Shown piece by piece: positions 2,504 through 63,598 of a DNA stretch of 64,000 nt. The position numbers and the translations under genes were made by a program. How positions within the stretch are numbered: position 1 is the first letter of the stretch; each line of letters begins with the position of its first letter. The stretch comes from an uncultured Marinobacter sp. (GTDB taxonomy: Bacteria > Pseudomonadota > Gammaproteobacteria > Pseudomonadales > Oleiphilaceae). The DNA is taken from positions 57,469 through 121,468 of the forward strand of contig NZ_CAMYMK010000003.1 in the NCBI RefSeq assembly GCF_947259545.1, given 5' to 3'. The notes beneath the pieces were generated by a model that had not been told where the DNA came from, did not search any database, and was given only the letters and a program-made list of their open reading frames with translations.

Positions 2504-3685
2504 TTAGGCAACTTCGAACAATCCCGCAGCACCCATACCAGTGCCTACGCACATAGTCACGACGACGTATTTAACGCCACGGCGCTTGCCTTCGATCAGG
2601 GCGTGGCCAACGAGGCGTGAGCCGGTAGTGCCGTAGGGGTGGCCGACTGCGATGGCGCCGCCGTTGACGTTGAGGCGGTCCATCGGGATGCCGAGTTTGC
2701 GCTGGCAGTAGAGCACCTGAACGGCGAAGGCTTCGTTGAGTTCCCACAGGCCGATGTCGTCGACGGTCAGGCCGGCGCGCTTGAGCAGTTTGGGAACGGC
2801 GAAGACCGGGCCGATGCCCATTTCGTCGGGCTCACAACCGGCAACCGCGAAACCACGGAAGATACCCAGCGGGGTAGCGCCGCGCTGTTCGGCCACCTTG
2901 CTGTCCATCAGCACACAGGCCGAAGCACCGTCGGAGAACTGGCTGGCGTTGCCGGCGGTGACCACGCCGCCTTCCATTGCCGAGCGGATCTTGGTGACGC
3001 CTTCCAGGTTGGTGCCCGGGCGGATGCCTTCGTCCTGGCTGACGGTGACTTCCTGGCTGCTGAGCTGGCCGGTGGCCTTGTCGGCGACGCCCATGGTGGT
3101 GGTGATGGGCACGATTTCGTCGTCGAACTTGCCGTCTTCCCGGGCTTTGGCGGCCAGGGTCTGACTGCGAACGCCGTACTCGTCCATGTCTTCTTTCTTG
3201 ATGTCGTAACGCTTGGCGACCGTCTCAGCGGTATCCAGCATCGACCAGTAGAGTTCCGGCTTGTTCTTGGCCAGCCAGGGTTCCATGAAGTAGTTCTGGT
3301 TGACGTTGGCTTGCACGGTGGAGATGGATTCAACACCACCTGCGACCATCACCGGCACTCGGTCCACGGCAATGTGGTGGGCCGCCATGGCAATCGCCTG
3401 CAGGCCGGACGAGCAGAAGCGGTTGATGGTGGCGCCGGCCACGGACACTGGCAGACCGGCACGGATGGCGCCCATGCGGGCCACGTCGTTACCGGTGGAG
3501 CCTTCGGGCAGGGCGCAGCCCATCAGCACGTCTTCGATTTCGTTGGGGTCGACTTTCGAGCGCTCGACCGCGTGCTGGATGGCGTGACCGGCCAAGGTGG
3601 CGCCGTGGGTCATGTTCAGGCCGCCGCGCCAAGATTTGGCCAGGGGCGTGCGGGCGGTGGATACGATGACAACATCATTGGACAT
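2504..3685 (-). CDS. Acetyl-CoA C-acyltransferase (thiolase), PimB-like
   Basis: [36 protein letters not shown] thiolase motifs. Confidence 0.95.
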
Positions 3686-52898: not shown

Positions 52899-55166
52899 TC
52901 AGATGCGGGAATCCGCCGGAATATCGGTAACCATGGTACCTTCGCGCAGGGCTTTTTCCAGAGAGGCCGCGGGAACGGGCCGGCTGATCAGGTAGCCTTG
53001 GGCCAGGTCGCAATGATGATCCTTGAGGAACGCCAGCTGCTCCATGGTCTCAACCCCTTCCGCCACAACACGGATACCGAGATTGTGGGCCAGATTGATC
53101 ACCGCCCGGGTGATCACTGCATCGTCGTGTCGCTCGGTGACCTCGGTAATGAACGAACGGTCAATCTTAAGCAGATCTACGGGGAAGTCCCGCAAATAGC
53201 CCAGTGATGAATAGCCAACCCCGAAGTCATCAATGGCAAGGTGCACACCAAGTTTGTGTAACCGGGACAACTGGTTGAGGTTGTGTTCGATGTTCTGGAT
53301 AAAAATTTCCTCGGTCAGCTCCACTTCCAATTGTCCCGGTGGCACATTGTGGGCTTCCAGTGCTTCCTGAATATGGTCCACCAGACCCTCATCATCCAGC
53401 TCACGCCCCGAGAGGTTGACGGCAATGCGCAGCTGTTCGAAAGCGGTGCCACGCCAGCGGGCAAGTTGCTCGCAGGCAGCCATCACAACCCAGCGCCCGA
53501 TCTCGGTGATGCGGCCACTTTCTTCCGCCAACGGAATAAAATCGATGGGTGGCAGTAATCCCCGTTGCGGGTGTTGCCATCGTATCAGCGCCTCCGCGCT
53601 ATGGATCTCGGCGCTTTCCAGGTCGACCTGCGGCTGGAAGTGAAGTACGAATTCGTTGTTGGCAAGGGCCTGGCTAAGGTCCTTGTCCAGCTCCAGGCGC
53701 ATGACTTCCCGCTCCTGCATGCCCTCGGTGTAGAACTGGTAGGTATTGCGTCCCTGGTCCTTGGCGCGATACAGGGCAATATCCGCGTTACGGAGCAGGG
53801 TGTCGGTATCCAGGCCGCTCTGCGGGTAGAGGGCAATGCCCATGGTGGCGGTGATGCCGTGGGCCTGGTTCTGCACCTCGAAAGGCTCTGCGAAACATTG
53901 CTTGATCTGACCCAACAGATAAATGACGTCGTCCAGACTGTCGACATGCTGCTGGCAGATCATGAACTCATCTCCGCCGGAGTACGCCACCAGGATCTTC
54001 TCGTTGCTCAGGCTGTTCAGGCGCTCTGAAACCTTGATCAGCAGCTCGTCCCCGAACTGATGGCCAAGGGTGTCGTTAAGTACCTGGAAGCGGTCGAGAT
54101 CCATCATCACCAGGGCCACCTGCCGCATCTGGCGGTCGGCGATACTGAGGGTATGGGTAAGGTCTTCCATGAAGAACCGGCGGTTCGCGAGACCAGTCAG
54201 GGCGTCAGTGGATTCCAGCCGGACCAGATCCTGCTGCACTGCCTTGCGCTGGTCTATTTCCAGTTCCAGCTCTTTGCGGGTCTTCAGCAGCGCGCGATTG
54301 CGTTTGAGTACGATCTGAACCAGCAGGGTGGTCAGGCTGATCATAATCCCCATGAACAGAATGGAGATAAACGTGACCCAGGGCCAGATGCTTTTCCGGT
54401 CGTTGACCCAGGTGGTCGACGGAGTAATGCTCAGCGACCAGTCCACTGTCGGCAGGTCGACCTCGACAGTGTGGGAGTAGTCAGTAGCGAATTCCCTGCC
54501 GGCGTTGAGCTCATAGGCAAGGGCGCCGCCTTCAAAAATACTGATATGGAAATCGTCCAGAACCCTGCTGGTCAGTAACTGGCGGGCCAGGGTTTCCATC
54601 AGGAAGACACCGGCAATGAACCCTTTGTTTTCATCACCAGAGTGGACCGGCACATAGATAACCAGGCCCGTGCCGCCCTGTCGAAGATCGACCACACCGG
54701 AAACATCGATGGTGCCGTTGGCTTGCGCGGCCTCCAGCGCTTTGCGGCGCTCCGGGGAAAATGCCACGTTGTAACCAATAACCTCTTCGTTGCCTGATAC
54801 GGGCTCCAGCCAGCGAATCACGAACTGAGGGTCAATCCACTCAAGGGCCTGGTAAACGCCGAAGTCGTCCAGGTAGTTTCTGGCGTCCTGGCTCCAAAGC
54901 TCTTCCGTCATGTCCGGGTTGGCTTCAAGGCGTTTTGCCATGCGGCGAATGGCCTGCACATGAGCCAGGAATTCCCGCTCCAGGTTAACGGCCACGGCCT
55001 GGGCCTCATTGGCCAGATTGTTCTCAAGCTGGTGCCGGTCCTGCCTGTCGATGCCGAATTTCAGAACGGAAGCGATTCCGAGAAAGAGGACAAGAATCAG
55101 TACTGGAAAAACAGGGTGCAGAAGTCCTTTGACGACTTTGTTTGTCTCTGATTCTCGTTTTTCCAC
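52899..55166 (-). CDS. CHASE-GGDEF-EAL membrane c-di-GMP enzyme
   Basis: TM-flanked periplasmic domain (IGYNVAFSPERRKAL), DALTGLANRR, SGGDEF, EALIRWQHP, IDDFGVGYSSL. Confidence 0.92.
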   Translation of the reverse strand: MEKRESETNKVVKGLLHPVFPVLILVLFLGIASVLKFGIDRQDRHQLENNLANEAQAVAVNLEREFLAHVQAIRRMAKRLEANPDMTEELWSQDARNYLDDFGVYQALEWIDPQFVIRWLEPVSGNEEVIGYNVAFSPERRKALEAAQANGTIDVSGVVDLRQGGTGLVIYVPVHSGDENKGFIAGVFLMETLARQLLTSRVLDDFHISIFEGGALAYELNAGREFATDYSHTVEVDLPTVDWSLSITPSTTWVNDRKSIWPWVTFISILFMGIMISLTTLLVQIVLKRNRALLKTRKELELEIDQRKAVQQDLVRLESTDALTGLANRRFFMEDLTHTLSIADRQMRQVALVMMDLDRFQVLNDTLGHQFGDELLIKVSERLNSLSNEKILVAYSGGDEFMICQQHVDSLDDVIYLLGQIKQCFAEPFEVQNQAHGITATMGIALYPQSGLDTDTLLRNADIALYRAKDQGRNTYQFYTEGMQEREVMRLELDKDLSQALANNEFVLHFQPQVDLESAEIHSAEALIRWQHPQRGLLPPIDFIPLAEESGRITEIGRWVVMAACEQLARWRGTAFEQLRIAVNLSGRELDDEGLVDHIQEALEAHNVPPGQLEVELTEEIFIQNIEHNLNQLSRLHKLGVHLAIDDFGVGYSSLGYLRDFPVDLLKIDRSFITEVTERHDDAVITRAVINLAHNLGIRVVAEGVETMEQLAFLKDHHCDLAQGYLISRPVPAASLEKALREGTMVTDIPADSRI

Positions 55167-55230
55167 ACATCACTCCGGTCTGGTGCACCAACAACAGTAT
55201 CTATCGGCAGGTTGTGCTCAATTATGGGGG

Positions 55231-56532
55231 TTACGGGCGGTCACCGGCCACTAATTGTTGTATGCGTCCCTGTAACGAGATGCCGAAAGCACCGTCGGGC
55301 AGGGGGCGTAAAATAACAGATTGTGTGTCGTCCGGACGCTGCGACAGATCCAGAACCCTGGGCGTGACCGGATTCTTGTCAGTATCCAGCAGTACCTCGA
55401 TTCGGGGTTTCAGTTTCTTGCCGGGATGAGTGGCGACAATCAGCGCGACTTCCCCCGACGACAGTTCTACCAAACTTCCCGGCGGATAAATACCGATCAT
55501 TCGAATAAAGGCCTCGACCATCTCCGTGTCGAATTGCTGCCCCCGGTTGCTGTACAGGATGCGCATGGCATCGGAGGTTGGCAGGCCATCGCGATAACAT
55601 CGGTCGCTGGTAATGGCATCGAATGCGTCGACGATGGAAACCAGCCGCGCAAAGCGACTGATCTGTGGTTCTTCCAGTTGATGGGGGTAGCCAAGCCCGT
55701 CAATGCGCTCATGGTGGTGAACGCTGACGTCACTGATGATGGTATCCACATCCGGGTCCTGCTTCAGCAGGTCATAGCCCAGGGTCGTGTGTTTCTGCAT
55801 AACACTGAATTCGTTGGGGCTGAGGGCACCTGGTTTGTTGAGTATTGATGCCGGTACCTTGAGTTTGCCGATGTCGTGGAGCAGGCCACACAGTCCTGCA
55901 ATCTCCAGATCCTCATCAGGCATGCCCAGAAAACGGGCAAAAGCAACGGTGAAGACGGCCACCCTCAGACAATGCTCGGCGGTGTAGGCGTTCCGGGACT
56001 TGATTCGGCTCATCCAGAACATGGCACTGGCGTTGGCCTTGATGCTGTCCACACAATGTCGAATGATGGGGCGGGCATGTTGAAAATGCAGGTTGTTGTT
56101 GCCCTGTTCAATATCACGGATTACCCGCTCGATAAACGTGCGGGTTTTGTGCCACGTTGCCTTGGCCCTGGGAATTTCTTCCAGCAGCGAACGGGTTTCT
56201 GCCATGGGCGCTGTCGTGCGTTTTCGCTGCCGCGCGAGCTTGTCGATGACAGGAGCCAGGCGCACCTCTTCATCTTCCACCATAACCCATTCACAGTAGT
56301 GCCTCAGAACCTGGGCCTGGCCTGGATCGGTAAGGATAAATCCCTGGAACAGAACGGGGACCTCCGTCCACGGTCGGTCCAGTTTCACGACCTTCATGCC
56401 GATTTCGAGCAGATCGACGGGCAGCTTGACGCGACGCAGGGAGGTAGCTGACCGCCCCGATGGCGCCGCCACCTTGTTGGCGATCGGTCGGGGTGTCGTC
56501 TGTGCCCTGTTGGTTTTGCGTCTGAACCACAT
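55231..56532 (-). CDS. HD-GYP c-di-GMP phosphodiesterase with DUF3391-like N-terminus
   Basis: LEIGMKVVKLDRPW, YTAEHC, LLHDIGK, HHERIDGLGYP, IVDAFDAITSDRCY. Confidence 0.92.
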   Translation of the reverse strand: MWFRRKTNRAQTTPRPIANKVAAPSGRSATSLRRVKLPVDLLEIGMKVVKLDRPWTEVPVLFQGFILTDPGQAQVLRHYCEWVMVEDEEVRLAPVIDKLARQRKRTTAPMAETRSLLEEIPRAKATWHKTRTFIERVIRDIEQGNNNLHFQHARPIIRHCVDSIKANASAMFWMSRIKSRNAYTAEHCLRVAVFTVAFARFLGMPDEDLEIAGLCGLLHDIGKLKVPASILNKPGALSPNEFSVMQKHTTLGYDLLKQDPDVDTIISDVSVHHHERIDGLGYPHQLEEPQISRFARLVSIVDAFDAITSDRCYRDGLPTSDAMRILYSNRGQQFDTEMVEAFIRMIGIYPPGSLVELSSGEVALIVATHPGKKLKPRIEVLLDTDKNPVTPRVLDLSQRPDDTQSVILRPLPDGAFGISLQGRIQQLVAGDRP

Positions 56533-57211: not shown

Positions 57212-57940
57212 ATGGCAGTCTTGACCATGCTGGGAGTGGGCCACTCCGAAGCGATTGACCACTGGAATAACAACGCCATGGTAGAGGCCGGTGACAGGCG
57301 GTTGCTGATTGACGCCGGCTACACCATCAAATTTGCATTACGGGACCGCGGCCTGACTCTGGCCGATGTGGACGCCATTTTTATCACCCACGCCCATGCG
57401 GATCACTGTTTTGGTCTGGAGCGGCTGGGGTACGAGTGCCGATTCCGTTATGGCTTCAAGCCTGTGCTGTATTTACCCCCCGGAGTTTACGAAGAATTGT
57501 GGGAACACACCCTCAAGGGAGTGATGGGGCAAGTGGGCGAAGGGCCGGCGGAGCTGACGGACTTCTTTGATGTGGTGCTGCTGGACGACCGGCCCTTCGA
57601 GTTTGAAGGCGTCCGCTTGCAGCCGTTCCAGAACCGGCATACGCCGGAAAAACCGTCCTACGGCCTGATGCTCAACGATCACCTGCTGTTCAGTGGTGAT
57701 ACCCGCCCGATCCCTGAACTGGTGGCGCAATTCAATCCGCAGACGATTCTGCATGACGCCACCCTGTCGGACTGGAACCCGGTCCATGCTTCGGTTCGCG
57801 AGCTTCGTGAAAACTATCCGGACACCCAGCGTGAGCGAATGTACCTGATGAGCTATGAAGACACGTTCGAGCAACATCGGGCGGAAGTGGAGCAGGAGTT
57901 TGCCGGGTTTGCCCGTCAGGGACAGGAGTTTGCCCTTTGA
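57212..57940 (+). CDS. MBL-fold metallo-phosphodiesterase resembling the Apyc1/RNase Z group
   Basis: MLGVG..NNNA..LLIDAG..ITHAHADHCFGLE..LW..SY..FSGDT..LHDA..VHAS..FARQGQE. Confidence 0.85.
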   Translation: MAVLTMLGVGHSEAIDHWNNNAMVEAGDRRLLIDAGYTIKFALRDRGLTLADVDAIFITHAHADHCFGLERLGYECRFRYGFKPVLYLPPGVYEELWEHTLKGVMGQVGEGPAELTDFFDVVLLDDRPFEFEGVRLQPFQNRHTPEKPSYGLMLNDHLLFSGDTRPIPELVAQFNPQTILHDATLSDWNPVHASVRELRENYPDTQRERMYLMSYEDTFEQHRAEVEQEFAGFARQGQEFAL

Positions 57941-59634
57941 CCGAGGAAACCGTGTTTGCCCGGGTGATCCATTCCGATCTCGAAGCCGGTCGTTTTCTGG
58001 TGCTGGTGACCGAGGATCAGAGACTGGCCTACAGCCACTGGCGGCCTTTCCAGCAGGCGGGCTATCCGGCGGTGACCGCGGGTCAGGAGGTCCGGGTTCG
58101 GCTTGGCCGTGATCGCCGGGACAGTAAGACCCTGGTGGTGCGCGAGGTGCTGGATAATGACGAGGCTCGAGAGGTAGCGGTGATCAGCCACGGGTTGACG
58201 CTGTCGCCGGATGAGCCACGTCATATGGCCGAGGCGGAGTTCCTGGCGGCCATTGATCCCGCAGATGGTGTGGTGGTGATCGCCAATGCGGTGATTGACG
58301 GCTCGGAACGGTCTGACCTGGCTTTTGCCGGATCCGTGGTGCTGATCAATTGCGAGGTATTGGGCGATTTCCGCTGGCTCGGGGCCCGATTCCGGGGCAG
58401 TTTCTGGTGCCTCAACTGCCGCTTCAACAATCATTTCAGCCTGAAATCCGCGCATCTGGATGGCAGCGTTGTGATGTTTGGCTGTGACTTCAGCGGCGCC
58501 GGTGGCATTTCGTTCCGTGGCATTCAGGCCTGCTCCGTGCTGATGGAATTCGGTACCCGTGGCAGCGAGGACATGCTCTGGCTCAACGAAATGACCCTGA
58601 GCGGATGCCTGGCGCTGAACGGCAGTTTCCAGGCGCCTGTGCAACTGATGGCGGTCCAGGACGAGGCACCGGTGAACGATTCGCCGTCTCTGGGCCAGGT
58701 CTATATTGGCCGCCAGAGTTATCACGCCGAACAGCTGAGCAGAAACGGTTTTGAAGGCGGTTTGTTTGTTGACGGGTATACGGTGTCTGGCCGTCTGGAG
58801 ATTCGCCGCAGTCATCTGAACCAGTTGCGGTTGGGAGAGCTGACAGCGGAATCCATCCTGGTGGATAACTGTGAACTGGCCGCTGACCTCTGGCTGGATC
58901 GGGTTACCGTGACGGACGAAGAAGTGGGCATCAGCATCCAGGATACCCTGGTGGGGCGTCACCTGAGGATGACCGGACATCACTTCCGTGGCCGCTTGTG
59001 TCTGAACGGTTCATCCGTGGGTCAGGCGTGGATGCTGGAGCTGGAAGCGCCTGAGGAAGGCACACCGAAGGTGGAGATGATGCGCTTCCACGCTGAGCAG
59101 GCGTGGTTTGATCCGGTGTCCCTGGTCTACGGTGCCAAACCGGCCCGACGCTCGACAACGCCGCCGCCTTTCGGTCTGTTGGCGCGGGCCATGATGCCCC
59201 GCCCCAGCGGCGATGACCGTCGTCATCTGGCGGAAGCCTACACCCGGTTCAAGAACTGGATGTCCACCACCGGGCATCTGCGGGAGGAGGACCACGCCTT
59301 TTTCCACATGCGGCATCACAAGGAAACCAGCAGGGTGCGCCGTTTCCTGCTTGGGGGAGTGTTTGGATGGGGCATCCGGTTTCGGAATATTCTGGCGGCG
59401 GCGCTGATGATCTCAATCCTGTTTGCGGCGGCGTTCATGGCGGTCGGAATCCGCACCGGAGAAGCGGTGATGCTCAGCCTGCAGAGTTTTATCAGCAGTT
59501 TCTACGGTCAGTGGAGTGAGCCCGAACCCTCCGCCACCGGACTCCTGTCGGTGCTGGTCACACTGGAATCCATGATCGGTGTGCTGTTTGTGACCGTATT
59601 AGTGGGTGCATACATTCGCAAGCTACTGAGATAA
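57937..59634 (+). CDS. CSD-like + pentapeptide-like solenoid + ion-channel-like membrane protein
   Basis: N-terminal GYPAVTAGQEVRV; repeats such as ARFRGSFWCLNCRFNNHFSL; C-terminal AEAYTRFKN..G..EED..F, FGWGIR, TM-LSLQSFISSFYG-TM(ESMIGV); TTGA overlap with upstream gene. Confidence 0.75.
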   Translation: MTEETVFARVIHSDLEAGRFLVLVTEDQRLAYSHWRPFQQAGYPAVTAGQEVRVRLGRDRRDSKTLVVREVLDNDEAREVAVISHGLTLSPDEPRHMAEAEFLAAIDPADGVVVIANAVIDGSERSDLAFAGSVVLINCEVLGDFRWLGARFRGSFWCLNCRFNNHFSLKSAHLDGSVVMFGCDFSGAGGISFRGIQACSVLMEFGTRGSEDMLWLNEMTLSGCLALNGSFQAPVQLMAVQDEAPVNDSPSLGQVYIGRQSYHAEQLSRNGFEGGLFVDGYTVSGRLEIRRSHLNQLRLGELTAESILVDNCELAADLWLDRVTVTDEEVGISIQDTLVGRHLRMTGHHFRGRLCLNGSSVGQAWMLELEAPEEGTPKVEMMRFHAEQAWFDPVSLVYGAKPARRSTTPPPFGLLARAMMPRPSGDDRRHLAEAYTRFKNWMSTTGHLREEDHAFFHMRHHKETSRVRRFLLGGVFGWGIRFRNILAAALMISILFAAAFMAVGIRTGEAVMLSLQSFISSFYGQWSEPEPSATGLLSVLVTLESMIGVLFVTVLVGAYIRKLLR

Positions 59635-59641
59635 CACTGTC

Positions 59642-60181
59642 ATGTGGTACCTGTGTGGACTGGGAAGTAATATCGAACCGGAACAGAACCTGGTGAAGGT
59701 TGTCACTCGACTACTGGAAAAGCACGGGTCCCTGTGGCTGTCGCCGATCATTCACACTCGTCCCCAGGGTATCGAGACTGACCGTCCGTTTCTCAATGCG
59801 CTGGTGGTGGTGTTCAGTTCACTGTCTCCGGAGCGACTCAAGGCCCATTTCAATCAGTTGGAGGAATCTCTCGGACGGGACCGCTCGGATCCCCTCTGCA
59901 GTCTTAAGGATCGACCGATTGATGTGGACATCCTGGAGTACAGTGAGAACGGTCGTTTCCTGGGCGAAGGGATAGATGAACCCTACTATCAACGGCTTTT
60001 TCATGGGCAGACTGAAAACTCAGTCCGGGCTTCCCTGACCGTGGCGGGCCATACCCTGGGCCAGGCGTCGGCCACCATCCACCGGGATCTGCGCACCGGT
60101 GATGAAATCGTTGTCCACCAGGGCCAGCAACTGCATGACCACGCTGTGAAAGCCTCCCTCGCGGGCCAGCAGGGTCTCTGA
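59642..60181 (+). CDS. folK: FolK/HPPK-like pyrophosphokinase
   Basis: LGSNIE, PFLNAL, LEESLGR, DRPIDVDIL. Confidence 0.85.
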   Translation: MWYLCGLGSNIEPEQNLVKVVTRLLEKHGSLWLSPIIHTRPQGIETDRPFLNALVVVFSSLSPERLKAHFNQLEESLGRDRSDPLCSLKDRPIDVDILEYSENGRFLGEGIDEPYYQRLFHGQTENSVRASLTVAGHTLGQASATIHRDLRTGDEIVVHQGQQLHDHAVKASLAGQQGL

Positions 60182-60784
60182 CAATACCTGCTGTCTTTGG
60201 CTGTCGGTATGGCGCGGCAGGAATCCGATGGGGCCGGGCATAATGGCATTGACCCGCACATCGGGCGCCAGCAGCGCGGCATAGCTCAGGGTCAGGTTGG
60301 CCAGGGCTGCCTTGGACGCACAATAGGCTCCGTAAAGCGGGTTGGGGCGTTCCGTGAAGATGTCGGTAATGTTGACGATCAGTGACGGACGCCCGTACAC
60401 CCGCGCCGCTGCCTCCAGGGCAGGGCCGAGGCCGTGCATCAGCTGCATGGGAGCGGTGCTGTTGATCTGAAACAGGCGGGCAGCCTGGTCCGGGCGTTGC
60501 CGTGGATCCTGGGCGTCGGTTTCGAATGTGGAGGCGTTGTTGACCAACAGGCTGACGCTGCTGGTGTCGCGAATAATGTCGTCGATCCGGGCCTGCACCG
60601 CGTCCGGATCGGCCAGATCGACCTGCAGTGCCGTCGCACCCCGACCGATGAGGTGATCGACCTCATCGGTGTGAGTCCGGTACAGGGCGAACAAACGGTA
60701 GCCCCGCTCAATCAGAGCCAGACTCGATTCATAACCGAGCCGCCGACCGGCACCGGTGATCACGGCCACTGGAGCAGTCGACAT
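60020..60784 (-). CDS. Pteridine reductase / FolM-like SDR
   Basis: TGAGRRLG, LVNNASTF, NITDIF, YCASKAAL, VRVNAIMPG, IPVDGGRRL. Confidence 0.85.
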   Translation of the reverse strand: MSTAPVAVITGAGRRLGYESSLALIERGYRLFALYRTHTDEVDHLIGRGATALQVDLADPDAVQARIDDIIRDTSSVSLLVNNASTFETDAQDPRQRPDQAARLFQINSTAPMQLMHGLGPALEAAARVYGRPSLIVNITDIFTERPNPLYGAYCASKAALANLTLSYAALLAPDVRVNAIMPGPIGFLPRHTDSQRQQVLSETLLAREGGFHSVVMQLLALVDNDFITGAQIPVDGGRRLAQGMARHGQGSPD

Positions 60785-60788
60785 GGAA

Positions 60789-61358
60789 TCAGTCCCGGTG
60801 GCTGAGCAGCTGCAGGAATTCGGTTCGGGTCGCCTGGGATTTGCGGAACTGGCCCAGCATCACCGAGGTTTTCATGCGGGAGTTCTGTTTCTCCACACCC
60901 CGCATCATCATGCACATGTGCTGGGCTTCGATCACCACGGCCACACCCTTGGCGCCGGTGACTGATTCAATGGCTTCGGCGATTTCCCGGGTCAGGTTTT
61001 CCTGGATCTGCAGCCTTCGCGCGTACATGTCGACAATACGGGCAAACTTGGACAGCCCGAGAACCTTGCCCTGCGGCATGTAGGCAATATGGCACTTGCC
61101 GATAAACGGCAGCATATGGTGTTCGCACATGCTGTATAGCTCGATGTCCTGAATCATCACCATCTCGTCCATGGAGGACTCAAAGACAGCGTTATTGACC
61201 AGTTCACCCAGGTCCTGCTGATAGCCGTTTGTCAGGAACTGCATGGCCTTGGCCGCACGCATTGGCGTGTCCATCAGGCCCTCGCGGGAGGTGTCTTCCC
61301 CCAGACCATTAATGATGTCGCGGTAATGGCCGGCCAAATCTTCCAGGGAGTTGCTCAT
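60789..61358 (-). CDS. folE: GTP cyclohydrolase I
   Basis: [48 protein letters not shown]. Confidence 0.96.
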
Positions 61359-62485: not shown

Positions 62486-63598
62486 TCAGGTGTCGGCAAT
62501 CAAATCTGTGCCGCCATCATCCATTGGGCTTGACGTGTCTGCAGTTCTCGGTGCGCTGACCACCTGGTTCCGGCCCCGGGATTTGGCCTGATACAGTGAT
62601 TGGTCAGCGCGATTCAGCCACACCGACCAGGTTTCGCCCTGGACAACTTCCGCCGCACTGGCACTGGCTGTGACCCGGATATCATCCAGAAAAGGGCGGG
62701 CACTGATGCAGATCAGCAGTTCCTGTGCAAGAGTTTCGGCATCCCGTTGACGGGTTTCCGGCAGCACCAGCATAAATTCCTCTCCGCCTATACGAAAAAG
62801 CTGGTCGCTTTCTCGCAGCCGTCGGCGAATTCTCATTGTGAGCTCCGTTAATACCTTGTCGCCAGCAAGGTGCCCCCACTGGTCGTTGATGGTCTTGAAG
62901 TAATCGAGATCCAGCAGGATCAGGCTGGATACCCGCTCATAGCGTTCACGCATCTGGATCTGACTGTTGAGGATATCGGCCAGTTGCGATCGGTTGAGAC
63001 AGCCGGTCAAGGGGTCCGTGGTCGCCAGACGTGTTAGTTCGTCTTGAAGCCGACCGACGAGCCAGGCAAAAACCATCGCAAAGACGCAGGTCAGGCCGAG
63101 GGAAAAGGTGATGCGCCAGAAGTCCGCTTCCGGGAACTGGAGAAACGACACCATTGCCATCACGGTGACAAAAAGGATGTTGCTGATGGTGGCTTCCCGT
63201 AGCGGAAGCAGGAAAAACACAGCGGTGGCGGCGGGGTACGCCCAGTACAGGCCGGCATAACCGTTAATGCTCGTGGAGTAGGCGGCACAGATCACCGCCA
63301 GCAACGGAAACAATCGCCCTTTGAGGAAATAGGTGCCACGGAACCTGAGAAACGCGATCACCAGCAGGGCATTAGTGCGGAAAAAGATCAGCAACGTCGA
63401 TAGCAGATAATTACCGTGACTCCACTGCACCAGGATCAATGGGGCGACGGCAATAAACGACCAGAAGTAAAGGTGGTAGACAATCTGGCGTTTGAAGCCC
63501 AGAACCGCAAGTGTAGGATTGGTGGCAACCTTATCTGTTGAGAGCGATGGACTCACAGCGCACTCCTGCTGTTCCTGTACTTTTGAACCCGCTTCCAT
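62486..63598 (-). CDS. Membrane-bound diguanylate cyclase
   Basis: About six TM segments; TDPLTGCLNR, DLDYFKTINDQWGH, RIGGEEF, ADQSLYQAKSRGRN. Confidence 0.92.
   Translation of the reverse strand: MEAGSKVQEQQECAVSPSLSTDKVATNPTLAVLGFKRQIVYHLYFWSFIAVAPLILVQWSHGNYLLSTLLIFFRTNALLVIAFLRFRGTYFLKGRLFPLLAVICAAYSTSINGYAGLYWAYPAATAVFFLLPLREATISNILFVTVMAMVSFLQFPEADFWRITFSLGLTCVFAMVFAWLVGRLQDELTRLATTDPLTGCLNRSQLADILNSQIQMRERYERVSSLILLDLDYFKTINDQWGHLAGDKVLTELTMRIRRRLRESDQLFRIGGEEFMLVLPETRQRDAETLAQELLICISARPFLDDIRVTASASAAEVVQGETWSVWLNRADQSLYQAKSRGRNQVVSAPRTADTSSPMDDGGTDLIADT

Follow-up and report, generated by a model that had tools for sequence, protein, structure and literature searches.

HalA, the effector of the Hailong anti-phage system, is a homotetrameric channel with a cytoplasmic crown that binds oligodeoxyadenylate made by the operon partner HalB, and it depolarizes the cell (reviewed in PMC13434031). 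Here we describe a gene, denoted X, at positions 57937..59634 (+) of a 64,000-nucleotide stretch of DNA (hereafter, the window) from an uncultured Marinobacter sp. (contig NZ_CAMYMK010000003.1, positions 57,469 to 121,468 of the forward strand). According to the open reading frame (ORF), an AlphaFold2 (AF2) model and Foldseek, the 565-aa product combines an N-terminal cold-shock domain (CSD) with a beta-solenoid and a channel tail of the P-loop type. To our knowledge, channels combining a solenoid with a P-loop were uncharacterized before HalA was described in 2025, and a literature search on the present architecture and on the gene cassette around it found no relevant description. The reading we prefer, at a probability of roughly 0.4, is that X is a HalA-like, cytoplasm-facing, ligand-gated ion channel embedded in a phosphodiesterase/pterin operon.

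Gene X starts with a TTG codon that overlaps the stop codon of the upstream gene, encoding a metallo-beta-lactamase (MBL) fold protein, by 4 nt (TTGA). An NTGA overlap of this kind, with TTG, GTG or ATG as the start codon and a GGAG-like motif on the 5' side, was found in 17 of the 18 homologous loci checked; the gene and its start are therefore real and conserved, and translation of X is probably coupled to that of the upstream gene. The N-terminus aligns end to end with those of 44 database homologs of the same length, which come from Marinobacter, Billgrantia, one Marinobacteraceae isolate and many metagenomes. Conservation was assessed over columns of 22 sequences, with identity down to 31%, and an AF2 monomer model built from a 22-sequence alignment reached a predicted local distance difference test score (pLDDT) of 88 and a predicted TM-score (pTM) of 0.84, with helices at residues 425-445, 448-462, 466-475, 482-502, 507-518 and 536-564. 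The original prediction, made from the letters of the DNA, was that an oligonucleotide/oligosaccharide-binding (OB) domain, a solenoid and a channel-like tail follow one another in this protein, and this three-part build was recovered in the AF2 monomer and by Foldseek.

The tail comprises an outer transmembrane helix (TM1, residues 482-502, 59380..59442, +; AF2), a pore helix with a loop equivalent to the selectivity filter (residues 507-526, 59455..59514, +; delineated by hhalign, by the KirBac3.1 register and by invariant columns, with the pore helix itself at 507-518 in the AF2 model) and an inner helix (TM2, residues 536-564, 59542..59628, +; AF2, hhalign, Foldseek and conservation). The predicted order, two transmembrane helices, a pore helix and a third transmembrane helix, thus holds for TM1, the pore helix and TM2, but the first of the proposed membrane helices (residues 466-475, RRFLLGGVFG) is a short, interfacial segment resembling a slide helix. 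Basic residues at the ends of both transmembrane helices, an acidic loop and positive-inside flanks, as read from the X sequence, place both ends of the tail in the cytoplasm. TM2 carries T542, E544, a glycine hinge at G548 and the basic end G557-A-Y-I-R-K-L-L-R565. The pore helix, the loop and TM2 rank among the most conserved parts of X, and S514, Q516, F518, G524, W526, T542, G548 and G557-R565 are invariant in the 22 sequences.

A profile search found counterparts of residues ~420-565 of X at the C-terminal end of hundreds of solenoid proteins, which range from 180 to 1600 aa. Some of these (P0151, P0190 and P0109) match the Pfam family Ion_trans_2, at best with E = 2.8e-13, and the HalA hidden Markov model (HMM) to a weak degree. 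Pentapeptide proteins with a two-helix channel tail thus exist, as had been claimed, and their tails carry the canonical filter FSVITFTTIGYGDY (TIGYGD). When an alignment of 26 X-family tails was compared by hhalign with one of nine GYG-bearing tails, the two were matched with a probability of 99.1% (E = 5.3e-19), which makes X a homolog of these proteins; LSLQSFISSFYGQW was placed on FSVITFTTIGYGDY, with S520-S521-F522-Y523-G524 falling on T-I-G-Y-G. The notion that SSFYG is a degenerate filter is therefore supported at the profile level; the family consensus is S-S-F-F-G, with Y/F variation at the fourth position. When the final 150 residues were modeled separately by AF2 (pLDDT 86.5), Foldseek searches with this model retrieved Kir6.2, KirBac3.1 (24-27% identity over ~90-110 columns), MthK and KvAP, at weak E values of 0.3-1, and a profile search of PDB matched KirBac3.1 in the same register of the filter loop (E = 0.8). 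Judging by these profile and fold matches, the X tail is a P-loop pore homologous to the pores of potassium channels.

The T-[VI]-G-[YF]-G potassium filter is not present in X. The canonical conformation of the potassium filter cannot be formed with a phenylalanine in place of the first glycine, and because X has this replacement, canonical potassium selectivity is unlikely, by inference from established channel structure. The degenerate filter with its bulky aromatic residues could instead mean that X does not conduct at all and that the two-helix tail anchors a solenoid/CSD scaffold, which would tether the MBL, and perhaps the next enzyme encoded in the operon, to the membrane; translational coupling, suggestive of a stoichiometric complex, and the frequent use of solenoids as scaffolds fit this possibility. 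However, residues of the pore helix, the loop, the glycine hinge and other positions of TM2 are invariant down to 31% identity, which argues for a working pore, as a plain anchor would not need them, and genuine channels, among them HalA and the GYG-bearing relatives, are homologs of X. We consider a purely anchoring role quite unlikely.

HalA (PDB 9nyi, NCBIfam NF051894) is the top PDB fold match to X (E = 1.8e-3, probability 1.0, 343 columns). The matched chain, 9nyi_A, is HalA in complex with oligodeoxyadenylate, and nearly all of its 333 residues align in Foldseek with the solenoid, the helical coupler and the pore part of X. Phmmer with P0135 and the tail profile, both run against PDB, did not reach HalA, so that the connection to HalA comes from Foldseek and from the weak NCBIfam matches to X and its relatives.

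Between the N-terminal domain and the tail, the AF2 model contains a cytoplasmic beta-solenoid of ~280 residues (residues ~110-392, 58264..59112, +; DSSP and Pfam), in which short strands recur every 10-11 residues according to DSSP, with pLDDT >90 over residues 112-392. The repeats of ~10-11 residues that had been noticed in the middle of the protein correspond to this regular solenoid. It appears to be of a distant pentapeptide type: the Pfam profile Pentapeptide_3 (PF13576) matches residues 130-172 of X with 17 bits (E = 0.007), below the 27-bit cut-off, and matches relatives of X with 31-38 bits, above it. Foldseek also matched X to AlbG, at low probability. The solenoid is followed by the two-helix coupler and an FGWG slide-helix-like segment (residues 425-475, 59209..59361, +; delineated by invariant columns), with conserved residues Y435, W441, G446, E451-D452, F456 and M458; the coupler motif is also found across the wider superfamily of pentapeptide channels.

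The N-terminal domain (residues 1-75, 57937..58161, +) is modeled by AF2 as a five-stranded barrel (strands 4-13, 20-25, 30-34, 51-58 and 66-74). In Foldseek, where a long run of cold-shock proteins and IF1 ranks behind HalA, it superposes on CspA (1mjc, 2l15), CspB (1csp), the YB-1 CSD and IF1 with target-normalized TM-scores of ~0.76-0.80 and root mean square deviation (rmsd) of 1.9-2.4 A, whereas at the sequence level the family profile retrieves Thermotoga maritima Csp as its top PDB match with a weak E value of 0.11. The Pfam CSD profile (PF00313; cut-off 27 bits) does not match X itself. Among ten distant full-length family members recovered by exhaustive profile search, six match this profile, the best being P0076 (E = 3.5e-8, 33.6 bits) and the other five yielding E values of 3e-5 to 4e-3. 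P0076 begins with textbook CSD motifs (GIILHFNDHLGYGYIL...LIFFHFSDI) and also matches the PADLOC model for CSD proteins of type V retrons (CSD_V), and members of the deep clade carry GFGY and FFHF, that is, canonical RNP1 and RNP2. With sequence homology supported via these relatives, the N-terminal domain of X is most plausibly a true relative of CSDs, in line with the fold proposed originally. In the clade of X, an RNP2-like motif is kept as A-Y32-S33-H34-W35 (H34 in at least 90% of the sequences, W35 invariant), and RNP1 is degenerate in the Marinobacter clade, reading A-G-R19-F20-L-V (AGRFLVL), with F20 kept and R19 invariant. Since the RNP2-like motif survives while RNP1 has decayed, the ligand-binding face in the Marinobacter clade is likely to be partly preserved and remodeled.

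The gene upstream of X (57212..57940, +) encodes a 242-aa MBL-fold phosphodiesterase of the Apyc1 family (PF23023, E = 4.6e-38), which matches the solved Apyc1 structures 7u2r and 7u2s at E ~1e-40 (2.4e-40 for 7u2r), carries an HAHADH metal motif and also shows weak similarity to RNase Z. Bacterial Apyc1 homologs are common chromosomal phosphodiesterases that hydrolyze cyclic nucleoside monophosphates (cNMPs) (PMC9117128, PMC11724313). The third gene of the operon (59642..60181, +) encodes a divergent 179-aa HPPK-like protein (Pfam HPPK, E = 1.8e-15, profile positions 3-93 of 116), which retains the motifs GSN, FLNA, GRDR and D-x-D-I-L and has an altered PHP...R motif. This protein is the weakest of the three HPPK homologs in the genome; the two canonical HPPK genes lie only ~4 kb apart (G000 contig C11:32378-36806). 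Convergent to the HPPK-like gene is a gene for a short-chain dehydrogenase/reductase (SDR) resembling FolM (60020..60784, -), predicted to be of the dihydromonapterin or pteridine reductase type from its NCBIfam matches (PRK06483, E = 7e-52; PRK09135, E = 8e-45), both of which fall under the respective cut-offs. It is followed by the gene for GTP cyclohydrolase I, FolE (60789..61358, -; Pfam E = 1e-74; TIGR00063, 254.8 bits, above the cut-off), a neighbor of the cassette.

The 3' ends of the HPPK-like and SDR genes, which lie on opposite strands, overlap by 162 nt (window positions 60020-60181), and this overlap recurs in the distant lineages L019, L033 and L047. Coding constraint from the opposite strand may thus be the sole reason why the HPPK-like protein has a conserved C-terminal tail. 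Genes of cyclic di-GMP (c-di-GMP) metabolism flank the cassette on both sides (window positions 52899-56532 and 62486-63598) and encode GGDEF-EAL, DUF3391 HD-GYP and GGDEF proteins. Several of these genes recur near related loci: L002 has both HD-GYP and GGDEF, and several Marinobacter loci have HD-GYP, so these flanks look like shared synteny and not part of the module. In the L049 genome, a related MBL gene is followed by a gene for an EAL protein.

The distribution of the module was traced in a set of 121 Marinobacter genomes and in a sample of 400 genomes of the class (Gammaproteobacteria). X is present in 10 of the 121 Marinobacter genomes, and the MBL gene is found in exactly these 10, adjoining X each time. 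The HPPK-like gene is present in 14 of the 121, and the SDR gene occurs in 13, never without the HPPK-like gene; in six genomes of the genus, HPPK-like and SDR genes occur without the MBL-X pair. One genome (G412) retains a relic of X, the last 47 codons, 57% identical, between the HPPK-like gene and a gene for a CoA-binding protein (L028:5985-6116), which indicates joint deletion of the MBL gene and most of X. The MBL and X genes are thus gained and lost together. Pseudogenization of the SDR gene in genomes lacking MBL-X was also considered and was rejected, because the apparent internal stops proved to be the regular stop codon, reached a few codons sooner.

The MBL gene is directly upstream of X in 11 of the 14 independent lineages looked up, and in lineages where X has diverged to 30-33% identity, X is followed by the HPPK-like gene and the convergent SDR gene. 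The position of the SDR gene is the same in L019, L033 and L046-48, and a FolB gene lies 5' of the MBL gene in L024 (58-3459) and L050 (1173-3943); FolB or FolE is a frequent companion of the cassette. In the class sample, X was found in one of the 400 genomes, the genome of the window itself, and the FolB-MBL-HPPK-like array with the convergent SDR gene, lacking X, in three (L046:5006-7322, L047:5640-8016 and L048:5188-7483). Because FolB-MBL-HPPK-like/SDR arrays occur without X, the wider unit is a cassette of pterin-type enzymes, into which the MBL-coupled X gene is optionally inserted between the MBL and HPPK-like genes. Given that the MBL gene is located between the FolB and HPPK-like genes in several genomes, the substrate of this MBL may be a pterin phosphate instead of a cNMP.

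The deep, conserved link with pterin genes and the similarity of the SDR to pteridine reductases raise the possibility that X is the membrane part of a pterin pathway, that is, a conduit or regulator for the export or uptake of the pterins handled by FolB, the MBL, the HPPK-like enzyme and the FolM-like reductase, and not a signaling channel. In pterin salvage elsewhere, a reductase is paired with a membrane transporter. This explanation is very doubtful, because P-loop pores pass ions and not solutes of ~250 Da, the cassette is also found without X, relatives of X act with a retron reverse transcriptase (RT) or alone, and X is lost jointly with the MBL gene while the HPPK-like and SDR genes persist.

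In our preferred reading, X as a ligand-gated channel, four X subunits would assemble into a cation pore without potassium selectivity, with the CSD and the solenoid making up a cytoplasmic sensor crown. The sensor would bind a phosphorylated, base-like ligand, either a GTP-derived pterin phosphate arising via FolE and FolB (such as dihydroneopterin triphosphate, a cyclic phosphate or a pyrophosphate) or a cyclic nucleotide or oligonucleotide. The co-translated phosphodiesterase would set the level of the ligand, which the neighboring enzymes would probably produce, and binding or loss of the ligand would open the pore and change the membrane potential. In the retron-linked sister lineage described below, the same chassis would be driven by the RT, with multicopy single-stranded DNA (msDNA) as the ligand. 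The fully specified version of this model, whereby X is a metabolite-gated channel whose remodeled CSD reads a pterin phosphate made or modified by the HPPK-like enzyme and hydrolyzed by the MBL, and whose chassis was recruited by a retron to serve as an msDNA-gated effector, is rather improbable as a whole.

Several observations weigh against the channel reading. The Pfam profile Ion_trans_2 (PF07885) does not match X itself, and the bulky F522 and Y523 at the filter positions could block the pore and not widen it. The superposition of X on HalA (9nyi_A) is weak, with TM-scores of 0.22 and 0.32 and rmsd of 10.9 A, and the HalA HMM matches residues 470-565 of X (HalA 243-338) with only 13.1 bits (E = 0.041), against a cut-off of 250 bits. 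No defense-island context was seen in the window. In other genomes, the enzyme cassette stands without X, so X is dispensable for the chemistry of the cassette. With regard to the ligand, the decay of RNP1 in the Marinobacter clade is a further point on this side, and we know of no small-molecule ligand of a CSD.

The relatives of X that lie outside the enzyme cassette bear on the nature of the ligand. In L025, the gene for the X homolog P0066 is directly behind that of a 434-aa retron-type RT, and the stop codon of the RT gene overlaps the start of the X homolog (L025:3518-6746); the same arrangement is found in L026, and the two loci come from independent metagenomes. The L025 RT matches the PADLOC models RT_other (E = 7.5e-124) and retron RT_outgroup (E = 1.3e-117). 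On the 5' side of the RT gene, a perfect 14-nt inverted repeat (3518-3531 and 3663-3676) encloses 131 nt, which fits msr-msd (a1/a2-like) boundaries; an Rfam scan near the RT gene found no retron ncRNA family. The L025 locus looks like a retron of an unclassified type with a channel effector. Two other relatives stand alone, P0069 and P0076 (L023:35-6644); the surroundings of P0076 include a large CRISPR array (>50 repeats, ~1 kb away) and genes for a Y1 transposase, a HipA-type toxin and a Fic protein.

In three loci (L003:6001-7314, L004 and L005), a 437-aa ORF encodes an Apyc1-like MBL fused with a shortened X, in which the CSD lacks the first strands and the sequence ends in the solenoid, without a pore. 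In L003, this ORF adjoins RloB/AAA_21 and split HipA genes and is probably a decayed copy. The apparent MBL::X fusion (P0045) was rejected as Rosetta-stone evidence, being a decayed remnant without the first CSD strands and without X past residue ~243.

In a maximum-likelihood tree, the MBL/HPPK context is found on both sides of the root, and the RT-linked P0066 is sister to P0064, which is linked to MBL, HPPK and SDR genes (support 100/97). Because of this topology, the enzyme context is reconstructed as ancestral and the coupling to a retron as a later swap. No other observation hints as strongly as this exchange of partners that the ligand of the channel comes from, or is controlled by, the partner module, by analogy with HalB and HalA (PMC13434031).

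The evidence is divided on one part of the original prediction, the suggestion that the OB domain is a sensor of single-stranded nucleic acid. In its developed form, this explanation makes single-stranded DNA or RNA the ligand of a pore-gating OB/CSD domain, X an abortive-infection effector of the Hailong or retron kind and the MBL a nuclease controlling an oligonucleotide. It draws on HalA as the top fold match of X, on the retron-type RT with the inverted repeat directly 5' of P0066, on the match of P0076, located near the CRISPR array and the HipA/Fic genes, to the retron type V CSD model, on canonical RNP1 and RNP2 in the deep clade together with the RNP2-like motif kept in X, and on the weak RNase Z similarity of the MBL; retrons are known to have small CSD proteins as partners (PMC7736814). 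However, the RT-linked and stand-alone contexts are derived in the tree, the clade of X has lost RNP1, and the X locus, where the partner is a phosphodiesterase in a pterin cassette, has no polymerase or nucleotidyltransferase partner and is flanked by metabolic and c-di-GMP genes conserved in the genus. Furthermore, PADLOC finds nothing for X itself, neither a retron RT nor a retron ncRNA was found in the window, and tblastn of X against plasmid and phage collections yielded no homolog. Gating by single-stranded nucleic acid is probably right for the retron-linked relatives but somewhat unlikely for X, the partners of which at this locus speak for a small molecule as the ligand no less strongly than for single-stranded DNA or RNA.

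The X family adds a recognizable ligand-binding module, the CSD, to the HalA-type solenoid/P-loop chassis, and, if the ligand-gated channel reading is correct, this one chassis is served by two very different ligand-supply modules, the pterin/phosphodiesterase cassette and the retron. The question of what ligand gates these channels, and whether a partner enzyme setting the ligand level is their general logic, thereby becomes testable. Should the metabolite-gated version be true, X would be the first pterin-gated (or pterin-nucleotide-gated) channel and would tie a metabolic sensor directly to Hailong-type immunity. The MBL encoded between FolB and the HPPK-like gene is, in addition, a candidate for the missing phosphohydrolase of dihydroneopterin triphosphate (or of the cyclic phosphate); a gap at the dihydroneopterin-triphosphate phosphohydrolase step of the pterin branch has been described (PMC1971073).

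Each component of the module can be set beside a known system. The partner MBL resembles Apyc1 and the class II MBL cNMP phosphodiesterases in sequence (E ~1e-40) and in the HxHxDH motif, but in several genomes the genes for MBLs of this type are bracketed by those for FolB and an HPPK-like protein. The N-terminal domain shares the five-stranded OB barrel, with the RNP2-like aromatic residues and histidine, with CspA, CspB and the CSD partners of type V retrons; unlike cold-shock proteins, it is fused to a membrane protein, has a degenerate RNP1 and lacks a Pfam CSD match. With the pore domains of KirBac3.1, Kir6.2 and MthK, X has in common the fold of slide helix, TM1, pore helix and TM2, but it has neither the GYG filter nor the cytoplasmic domain of Kir channels.

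The pentapeptide-repeat proteins with an Ion_trans_2 domain (P0151, P0161 and P0190), themselves of an uncharacterized architecture, have a coupler and pore module homologous to that of X, and the layout common to both consists of the solenoid, the coupler Y..LK.W...ED.AFF.M, FGWG, TM1, the pore helix, TM2 and an RK(L/M)LR end. They carry the filter T-[IL]-G-Y-G-D and no CSD, whereas X carries S-S-F-Y-G-Q and the N-terminal CSD. Compared with HalA, X is 230 residues longer, with the additional CSD and a longer solenoid. The partner of HalA is the nucleotidyltransferase HalB; no HalB nucleotidyltransferase gene adjoins X, the neighbors of which are the MBL and HPPK-like genes, so that where HalA is paired with an oligonucleotide-making enzyme, X is accompanied by an Apyc1-like MBL hydrolase and pterin enzymes.

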